Origin: an uncultured Chloroflexia bacterium
Lineage (GTDB): Bacteria > Chloroflexota > Anaerolineae > Anaerolineales > UBA4823
Assembly: GCA_963840255.1 (NCBI GenBank)
Contig: CAWIYB010000003.1
Span: 67,077 to 131,076 of the forward strand
Length of the DNA: 64,000 nt
Direction of reading: 5' to 3'
Every line of letters begins with the position of its first letter. Within the stretch, counting starts at the first letter, position 1. The notes beneath the pieces are model-generated. The model ran no database searches, had not been told where the DNA came from, and saw only the letters and a program-made list of their open reading frames with translations. Positions 337-1,114 of this stretch are shown here, one piece after another. A program made the translations under genes and the position numbers.

Positions 337-367
337 AATACATAAAGGAGTCAGAAGCAGTTTATTT

Positions 368-1114
368 ATGGGCCAATCAATATTACTTGGGCAGAACCAG
401 CAGCTCCAAAAAGTTCCGCAGGCGATGTGGAAGCAACATCTAGCACAGGTTCCGGAACATGCACCGGCCCGGCTGAGCTTCATGACGGAGGCACATCAGC
501 GGGTGCGCAATTTCGTAGTAAAGGAGCTGGCGCTCAGGCAGCAACCGCTGGAGCCAAAATATATCTCCGAGAATTTAGATCTGCCCTTGGACCAGGTGAC
601 AAGGATCCTGGATGAGCTGGAAAAAAAGCTCTTCTTCCTGGTGCGCAACGGGCAAGGTGCAGTCACATGGGCTTATCCTGTTACCGTAGAGGTTACCCCT
701 CACCGGCTAAGTTTTGACAGCGGGGAAAAATTGTATGCTGCCTGAGCAGAAGATGCCATAGCGGCGCCCTTCGTGCAAGGGAAGCTACACAACAAGGCAA
801 TTTCGGTGGTAATAGAGACCAGGTGCGTGCATTGCGATCGAAGCTTGCACATCAAGGTTGACAGTAGTATGAAGGTATTTGTGCGTGAGCCAGACGCAAC
901 ACCGCTGGTGTTCATGCCAGATATGGACTGGGAACATTTTACCCAGCGGACGATCATCGACGCCTACTGACGGAACACCGTCTTCTTCTGGTCAGAAGAA
1001 CACGCCAGGGAATACCGCTTGAAGGTGATGCAAGTCAATGGAGTTTATTTAACGCTGGAGCAATGTGTGTACATGACGCCTATCACTCAAGGAGCACTGT
1101 TCGGATTTAGATAA
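368..1114 (+). CDS. MerB-like (alkylmercury lyase family) putative selenoprotein with two in-frame UGA (Sec126, Sec201), 248 aa
   Basis: ORF-track pieces 296-745 and 773-970 and the segment 971-1114 share one frame. LYAA-U-AED matches MerB YAWCALD; DAY-U-RNTVFF matches MerB FCxxVHFF. N-terminal HTH and AYPVT..TPHR segment present. A hairpin follows each UGA. Confidence 0.85.
759..787 (+). promoter_or_regulatory. Candidate bacterial SECIS 1 (for UGA 743-745)
   Basis: TAGC-GGCG-CCCTT-[CGTGC]-AAGGG-AA-GCTA; 26 nt between UGA and loop; G at loop position 2. Confidence 0.6.
979..1004 (+). promoter_or_regulatory. Candidate bacterial SECIS 2 (for UGA 968-970)
   Basis: CGT-C-TTCTTCT-[GGTC]-AGAAGAA-C-ACG; 19 nt between UGA and loop; GGUC loop resembles the E. 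coli fdhF SECIS apical loop. Confidence 0.7.

Follow-up and report, generated by a model that had tools for sequence, protein, structure and literature searches.

A MerB-fold protein family with UGA codons at both ligand-cysteine positions, a probable two-selenocysteine selenoprotein of uncultured Chloroflexota and other bacteria

Introduction

MerB, the organomercurial lyase (EC 4.99.1.2), which breaks mercury–carbon bonds and has structures from Escherichia coli plasmid R831b (1s6l, 3f0o and 3f0p) and from MerB2 (5c17), is defined by the catalytic triad Cys96/Asp99/Cys159. A selenium-containing relative, SaoL, is described in the accessible text of Haft and Gwadz as a MerB-like organometallic lyase of about 213 aa whose single selenocysteine (Sec, U) takes the place of Cys159 as part of a CU dipeptide; it has Cys at the Cys96 equivalent and marks a conserved nine-gene SAO (selenocysteine-assisted organometallic) locus in anaerobes (bioRxiv 10.1101/2022.07.06.499078). 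Here we describe a gene at positions 368–1114 (+ strand) of a 64,000-nucleotide stretch of an uncultured Chloroflexia bacterium (assembly GCA_963840255.1, contig CAWIYB010000003.1, positions 67,077 to 131,076; the whole stretch is called the window below). Its product is a MerB-fold protein in which the catalytic Asp is retained and both ligand cysteines are encoded by UGA, and it represents a new subfamily of the MerB superfamily, distinct from MerB and from SaoL.

Compared with MerB and MerB2, the new protein belongs to the same Pfam family and has the same fold and active-site positions, with the equivalents of Asp99 and Cys117 kept, and the chemistry is probably alike as well, with two chalcogen ligands on the metal and an Asp as proton donor. 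It differs from MerB in the predicted replacement of both ligand Cys by Sec, in an N-terminal extension of about 30–40 residues and in an extra His-Cys past the Cys117 equivalent. In addition, its sequence identity to MerB is low, its scores against MerB equivalog models fall far short, and its carriers show neither a mer operon nor a MerA over the cut-off.

With SaoL, as far as the available text of the preprint describes it, the family shares the MerB fold, a Sec at the Cys159 equivalent, truncation at UGA in databases and an occurrence in anaerobes, whereas it differs in having two Sec, YU or FU instead of CU, a length of 248 aa and no conserved locus. The initial annotation of this DNA had mentioned SaoL with caution, and rightly so, as SaoL is a separate, single-Sec (CU) MerB-like family. 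Among 119 prokaryotic selenoprotein families covered by a 2026 review, a small subset has two or three Sec, and in the accessible parts of that review SaoL with its one Sec is the sole MerB-type entry; as far as text searches show, the two-Sec family is not in its table (PMC13188914). An older selenoprotein table contains a putative mercuric reductase with a UxxU motif (PMC9312934). The present family resembles such multi-Sec selenoproteins in that more than one UGA would be decoded as Sec per mRNA, with selenium as a soft-metal ligand, whereas here the two Sec are 75 residues apart, have an in-frame hairpin each, and meet only in the fold. In the openly accessible main texts searched, we found no published description of a two-Sec MerB form, and SaoL was the only MerB-type selenoprotein that we found in print.

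A single reading frame with two internal UGA codons

On the plus strand, one frame of 248 sense codons runs from ATG 368 to TAA 1112–1114, and its only internal stops are two TGA codons. The first, TGA 743–745, corresponds to residue 126 in the context LYAA-U-AEDA, and the second, TGA 968–970, to residue 201 in the context IIDAY-U-RNTVFFWSEEHA. The start at ATG 368 is supported by homologs, which align from residue 1. In the list of open reading frames (ORFs) under translation table 11, the gene is broken into pieces that end at 745 and 970. The initial annotation had proposed this frame with these two interruptions and had stated that standard gene callers would split it; its coordinates and contexts proved exact, and the ORF list shows the split.

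Read contigs of relatives were also available from four DNA runs of one study (shares 0.04–0.12). None of them spans 743–745, and a single contig of one relative, X2 (869–1038, nine differences), matches the window at 968–970; this material is too thin to count as evidence.

Conservation of both UGA codons and of the sequence beyond them

Confirmed DNA loci of the family numbered 425 in species-representative genomes; metagenome contigs added at least 569, and 80 loci of each set were kept. Codons at the two sites were then read in these 160 loci, whose protein identity ranged from 47 to 83%. The combination TGA/TGA was found in 156 loci, Cys/TGA in two (L012 and L084) and Ser/Cys in two (L121 and L128), while TGG occurred in none. 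The first site is thus TGA in 156 loci, Cys in 2 and Ser in 2, and the second is TGA in 158 and Cys in 2. The residue preceding Sec201 is Tyr or Phe. Searches of whole genomes gave the same picture: in the class to which the window belongs, all eight matches among 201 genomes were flagged as having two TGA, and in a second class, three of four matches among 251 genomes had two TGA and the fourth had one. Since the same two TGAs occur in 156 other assemblies, sequencing error is strongly disfavoured.

The sequence beyond the UGAs is conserved as well. Across 3000 random pairs drawn from the 157 Sec/Sec genes, differences per site at codon positions 1/2/3 were 0.31/0.24/0.62 before the first UGA, 0.35/0.26/0.60 between the two, and 0.31/0.25/0.63 after the second. 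This equal pattern in all three segments indicates the same purifying selection on the protein throughout. The earlier argument that two random nonsense mutations were unlikely to fall on these codons is therefore borne out, both by the TGA/TGA combination in 156 of 160 loci and by the coding pattern of every segment, and invariant residues past both UGAs point the same way.

In protein databases, the family appears in a different form. A word-indexed search returned 93 relatives in length groups of about 248, about 200 (ending at site 2) and about 136–150 aa (ending at site 1). The full-length relatives carry W at both sites and come nearly all from contigs of about 1 kb. Because the DNA of the loci has TGA and never TGG, this W represents TGA translated as Trp, which would arise most simply from gene callers picking translation table 4 on short contigs. 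Trp at these sites, which the initial annotation had named as a finding that would speak against Sec, is thus apparent in protein databases only. A profile search of 1.84 billion representatives yielded 972 relatives at E ≤ 0.001, of which 68 reached E ≤ 1e-30; among the 147 new representatives listed, 61 were 123–128 aa long and so end at the first UGA. Alternation of Cys and UGA at the two sites, also proposed earlier as a check, was observed in part: Cys/TGA and Ser/Cys forms exist (two loci each), but the profile search found no Cys/Cys ortholog in the close family. Among full-length forms at greater distance, some are Ser/Cys and others have neither of the site residues.

Several database entries deserve separate mention. 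One full-length homolog, P0031, carries Gly at the first site and Leu at the second and may be either a true variant or an artefact of translation. Two apparent fusions, P0044 (296 aa, with acetyltransferase domains) and P0086 (304 aa, with AHSA1/START), may be read-through artefacts of the same mis-calling.

A conserved SECIS-type hairpin after each UGA

We analyzed the RNA downstream of the UGAs in 157 sequences using RNAalifold, which predicted one hairpin per UGA, at nt 25–39 and nt 16–33 counted from the U of UGA. Hairpin 1, a candidate selenocysteine insertion sequence (SECIS) at window positions 767–781 (+), has the form CCCUU-CGUGC-AAGGG and encodes P134, F135, V136, Q137 and G138. Hairpin 2, at 983–1000 (+), has the form UUCUUCU-GGUC-AGAAGAA and encodes F206, F207, W208, S209, E210 and E211. 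The stem of hairpin 1 is fully paired in 154 of the 157 sequences and its CGUGC loop is kept in 150; for hairpin 2, the stem is fully paired in 153 and the GGUC loop is found in all 157. These counts rest on 150 (site 1) and 149 (site 2) distinct 63-nt stretches. At pair 25–39 of hairpin 1, we observed CG in 147 sequences, UA in 4, UG in 3 and CA in 3, that is, a few compensatory changes and three breaks.

Constraint beyond the amino acid sequence was measured as relative codon entropy over 92 alignment columns with a conserved, degenerate amino acid. The median was 0.92, and the nine lowest values (0–0.30) belonged to P134, F135, V136, Q137, G138, F206, F207, S209 and E210. Mean synonymous entropy was 0.15 in the 10 hairpin columns and 0.88 in the 82 others (Mann–Whitney p = 1.7e-7, a value that is overstated, the sequences being related). 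At the codon level, Val136 in hairpin 1 is GTG in 155 of 157 genes, and in hairpin 2, F206 is TTC in 156, F207 TTC in 157, S209 TCA in 156 and E210 GAA in 155, while conserved residues adjoining the hairpin codons use the full codon range. In variants that lack a UGA, hairpin-1 codons were altered in L084, L121 and L128, and hairpin-2 codons in L128. This control for relaxation comprises four sequences, the second class having given no further Cys variants.

Both hairpins agree with published criteria for bacterial SECIS (bSECIS) elements, which in the accessible part of the 2026 review are a loop of 3–9 nt, a stem of 4–16 bp, a spacing of 16–37 nt, a minimum free energy of −7.5 kcal/mol or lower, and a G at loop position one or two with G or U after it (PMC13188914). 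Hairpin 1 has a stem of 5 bp (7 bp in the family majority), a spacing of 26 nt and, with the lower stem that extends it to 759–787 in the window, −8.9 kcal/mol. Hairpin 2 has a 7 bp stem and a spacing of 19 nt, and the site-2 context reaches −13.2 kcal/mol. Values of −7.5 kcal/mol or lower were obtained in 156 of 157 family members at site 1 and in 128 of 157 at site 2. In Rfam, whose coverage of bacterial SECIS is uncertain, no gathering-level match was found in the window, and a permissive scan of 700–1120 returned a chance match to the L19 leader only.

Selenocysteine machinery and the meaning of UGA in the genome

The genome (4.13 Mb in five contigs, 95% complete) contains every component of Sec insertion for which the initial annotation had suggested looking, namely selA, selB, selC and selD. 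We detected a tRNA-Sec at 72.6 bits, called by ARAGORN as SeC with anticodon tca, together with SelA (438.8 bits), SelB (wing domain at 69.8 bits within a 641-codon frame) and SelD (360.9 bits, with one in-frame TGA). TGA ends 672 of the 1865 long stop-to-stop frames in the genome and is therefore an ordinary stop codon here. Of the 201 class genomes, 173 have SelA, as do seven of eight carriers of the gene, so that a phylogenetic profile is uninformative; the SelA-negative carrier, G031, is 88% complete and lies in 940 contigs.

The selD gene of this genome, located outside the window (G000:C3:690881-691813, − strand, locus L171), is itself a selenoprotein gene with the motif SSCAG-U-ASK. About 30–46 nt past its Sec codon lies a GC-rich, GUG-loop hairpin that is comparable to those of the MerB-like gene.

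MerB fold and mapping of the active site

When Sec was entered as Cys, the protein matched the Pfam MerB family PF03243 at 52.2 bits over residues 108–234 (cut-off 27), confirming the MerB relationship that the initial annotation expected from a search with UGA translated. On raw DNA, the same model scored 36.1 bits and was flagged "2 TGA". The gene is the sole PF03243 match in its genome, and no model of NCBIfam release 20.0 claims the two-Sec family.

For residue mapping, we built a profile (A2) from 37 family members translated directly from DNA and aligned it to E. coli MerB (1s6l/3f0o). In this alignment, U126 (743–745, +) corresponds to Cys96, D129 to Asp99, C153 to Cys117 and U201 (968–970, +) to Cys159, in agreement with the assignments of the initial annotation, which had placed the UGAs on Cys96 and Cys159, the retained Asp between them, and a CVHC motif at the Cys117 site. 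Of the triad that defines MerB, the Asp is thus present, whereas UGA stands at both Cys positions, where the predicted Sec would be a chemical analogue of Cys. Asp129, which matches the proton donor of MerB, is encoded by GAT at 752–754 (+), and 156 of the 157 Sec/Sec genes have an Asp codon (GAC or GAT) here. The residues invariant in A2 are D129, F135, V136, G138, C153, F206–E210, G225 and Q241.

An AlphaFold2 model computed from A2 had a mean predicted local distance difference test score (pLDDT) of 94.0 and a predicted template modelling score (pTM) of 0.91. In a Foldseek search against the PDB, all 11 matches at E ≤ 0.001 were MerB or MerB2, at 14–19% identity, and the best template modelling (TM) score, to 5c17, was 0.70 when normalised by the query and 0.83 when normalised by the target. 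The next matches (E > 0.1) were winged-helix regulators that covered about 85 columns of the N-terminal part only.

The C153-V-H155-C156 motif (824–835, +) contains, besides the Cys117 equivalent, two residues conserved at 90% or more in the family, H155 and C156, which may serve as a metal relay or have a structural role. Several Cys/Sec database forms have CxxS or CxxT in place of this pattern. The N-terminal extension relative to MerB (window 368–480, residues 1–37) is modelled as a beta-hairpin (residues 4–17) and two helices, with G8 and W21 conserved. Residues ~41–102 form a winged-helix-like unit with weak MarR-type Foldseek matches; there is no evidence of DNA binding.

Distribution and genomic context

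The 80 kept genome loci comprised 60 from Chloroflexota, mostly Anaerolineae-type metagenome-assembled genomes (MAGs), 16 from other phyla and 4 unclassified. The 16 non-Chloroflexota loci were from Acidobacteriota, Desulfobacterota-type genomes, Zixibacteria, Cytophagia and one Gammaproteobacteria MAG. Within a class, the gene is patchy, as the match counts given above (8 of 201 and 4 of 251 genomes) illustrate.

Neighbouring genes in the window encode DUF2867/NmrA-type, DUF1697 and DUF1801 proteins, an MFS transporter, an ICMT-type methyltransferase, HPPK and SDR. The next gene downstream (1296–2738, +) encodes 480 aa with an NmrA/NAD-binding domain fused to DUF2867 and is common only to the loci of the three closest relatives, which are also the only loci to share neighbour clusters with the window. 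The 10 most recurrent neighbour clusters contained generic Pfam families only.

Upstream of the gene, AAGGAG at 345–350 (+), read from the sequence 17 nt 5′ of the ATG, is a possible ribosome-binding site; given its long spacing, this is a weak call. A promoter and terminator scan of positions 1–1400 gave nothing exceeding shuffles, and a predicted "terminator" at 969–982 lies inside the gene. Antisense ORFs overlapping the gene (window 700–957, − strand, and homologous loci) recur in 18–23 of 81 loci and are most likely a by-product of the conserved sense frame rather than genes.

Discussion

Conservation of the UGAs, the hairpins, the Sec machinery and the residue mapping together support the hidden 248-aa Sec/Sec MerB-like protein that the initial annotation had put forward. 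Judged from these sequence comparisons, the family very probably consists of genuine two-Sec selenoproteins whose UGAs would be decoded via two in-frame SECIS elements. That the protein acts as an organometal (C–metal bond) lyase is suggested by analogy to MerB, and we give this role an even chance. The combination of a two-Sec MerB-fold selenoprotein with an organometal lyase role, weighted toward its first part, appears likely.

Several observations count against this interpretation. On the side of decoding, 29 of the 157 site-2 contexts fall short of −7.5 kcal/mol, and the core stems alone are weak (−5.3 kcal/mol at site 1 and −5.1 kcal/mol at site 2). The hairpin that the initial annotation reported after each UGA stands at the family level (767–781 and 983–1000) but not in single sequences, as single-sequence folding of the window was no better than shuffles (z = −0.08 at site 1 and −1.33 at site 2). 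Moreover, L012, with Cys at site 1, retains hairpin 1, and L121, with Cys at site 2, retains most of hairpin 2. The FFWSEE motif is also present in the two Ser/Cys forms, so that part of its conservation is protein-driven. On the side of function, the NCBIfam MerB equivalogs NF009710 and NF033555 are missed (47.7 against 193 bits and 36.4 against 200 bits), so that the protein may act on something other than mercury. Barring gene pieces and overlapping ORFs, any one neighbour family recurs in at most seven of the 81 loci, and no mer gene was seen among the neighbours examined. MerA (TIGR02053, cut-off 454 bits) was over the cut-off in none of 11 carriers; the best scores below it were 318 in the genome of the window and 399 in the 10 other carriers, and a divergent MerA below the cut-off may be present. 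Finally, Hg(II) would be bound very tightly by a diselenolate, a property that speaks against rapid turnover.

The functional points are equally what would be expected if the protein were a real two-Sec protein but not a lyase, serving instead in high-affinity binding or sequestration of soft metals and metalloids (Hg, Cd, Ag, Cu, As), or as a redox diselenide/diselenol couple on a MerB scaffold. The missing mer context and conserved neighbour, the absence of MerA over the cut-off, the low equivalog scores and the turnover impeded by tight Hg–Se binding all fit such a role, as do the extra conserved H155 and C156. In the accessible text of the SaoL preprint, binding of other metals by MerB is also reported, and a single change can turn MerB into a copper-binding protein (bioRxiv 10.1101/2022.07.06.499078). 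However, the proton-donor Asp, needless for a pure binding site, is invariant in A2 and kept in all but one of the Sec/Sec genes, and the whole MerB fold is retained, active-site surroundings included. We regard a purely binding or redox role as possible but somewhat doubtful.

Orthology to SaoL of the SAO system is very improbable. The two proteins share a Pfam family and a Sec at the Cys159 equivalent, and there is a weak match to the NCBIfam SaoL model NF040728, but this match, at 47.2 bits, stays under the cut-off of 140 and is confined to residues 38–168. Furthermore, Tyr or Phe rather than Cys precedes Sec201, so that there is no CU dipeptide, and the Cys96 equivalent is Sec here but Cys in SaoL. 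Where SaoL has its nine-gene locus, no conserved neighbourhood was found here, with no neighbour in more than 7 of 81 loci in an analysis that did not search the individual Sao models. SaoL identity is thus contradicted on all three counts of model score, dipeptide and neighbourhood.

Two further explanations have next to no probability. A pseudogene with two chance nonsense mutations, or TGAs that are assembly or sequencing errors, might be suspected from the splitting of the gene by standard callers and from the lack of relatives' read contigs over 743–745, but is contradicted by the occurrence of both TGAs in 156 of 160 loci, which span several phyla and many assemblies, by the conserved and constrained hairpin after each TGA, and by codon-position statistics that show equal purifying selection in three segments. 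Reading of TGA as Trp or another standard residue has in its favour the W at both sites of full-length database homologs, but these W/W proteins come almost all from ~1 kb contigs, where a switch to table 4 is possible, and TGA is an ordinary stop in this genome, the sites align to the catalytic Cys of MerB, natural substitutes are Cys and never TGG, and the Sec machinery is complete.

Proposed mechanism

If the protein is a two-Sec organometal lyase, Sec would be inserted at UGA-743 and UGA-968 by SelA, SelB and tRNA-Sec, and each UGA would rely on a separate SECIS hairpin within the reading frame. The selenolate pair would then act as the Cys pair does in MerB and hold the metal of the substrate, an organometal compound that is most likely an organomercurial (methylmercury, for example). 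Transfer of a proton from Asp129 to the departing carbon would break the metal–carbon bond. At neutral pH, selenolates are in the deprotonated state, and they form tighter complexes with Hg than thiolates do. A selenolate pair would favour capture of the substrate and bond activation at very low levels, leaving release of the metal as the hard step. Selenium compounds are reported to cleave Hg–C bonds chemically, according to the accessible part of one study (PMC10114901).

In the available text of another study, MerB is thought to pass Hg(II) straight to MerA, and MerB function without MerA is an open question (PMC8261052). Because the gene stands alone, with no mer operon, MerA or conserved neighbour, removal of the metal would not follow the classical hand-off to MerA. 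Without MerA, turnover may be slow, the metal may be cleared by small thiols or selenols or by C153-x-H155-C156, or a different metal may be the target.

Significance

These findings describe a large family of predicted selenoproteins in which both active-site ligands are Sec, each UGA has its own SECIS-type hairpin, and Cys/Cys orthologs are essentially missing. The family is widespread in soil and sediment bacteria and is systematically mis-annotated: public protein collections hold it as W/W proteins, stubs of ~200 aa and stubs of 125 aa (P0002-P0041; P0104-P0228). Surveys of merB require Cys96/Asp99/Cys159, as stated in the available text of one of them (PMC8261052), and the two-Sec family is therefore invisible to them. 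For anaerobes that lack mer, enzymes for methylmercury degradation are not established, according to the accessible text of a further study (PMC10114901), and the family is a concrete, testable candidate for this activity in organisms of just this kind.

More speculatively, and with a probability that we consider rather low, stand-alone Sec/Sec MerB-type enzymes could account for a missing route by which methylmercury is degraded, independently of mer, in anoxic soils, peat and sediments. The diselenolate would capture methylmercury at environmental trace levels, methane would be set free through Asp129, and the mercury would either stay bound to selenium or move on via Cys-x-His-Cys, with no need for MerA. 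If this holds, the route would be invisible to every protein-based merB survey, and the family would provide a bacterial enzyme in which the complete pair of active-site ligands is selenium, with almost no sulfur-only orthologs.

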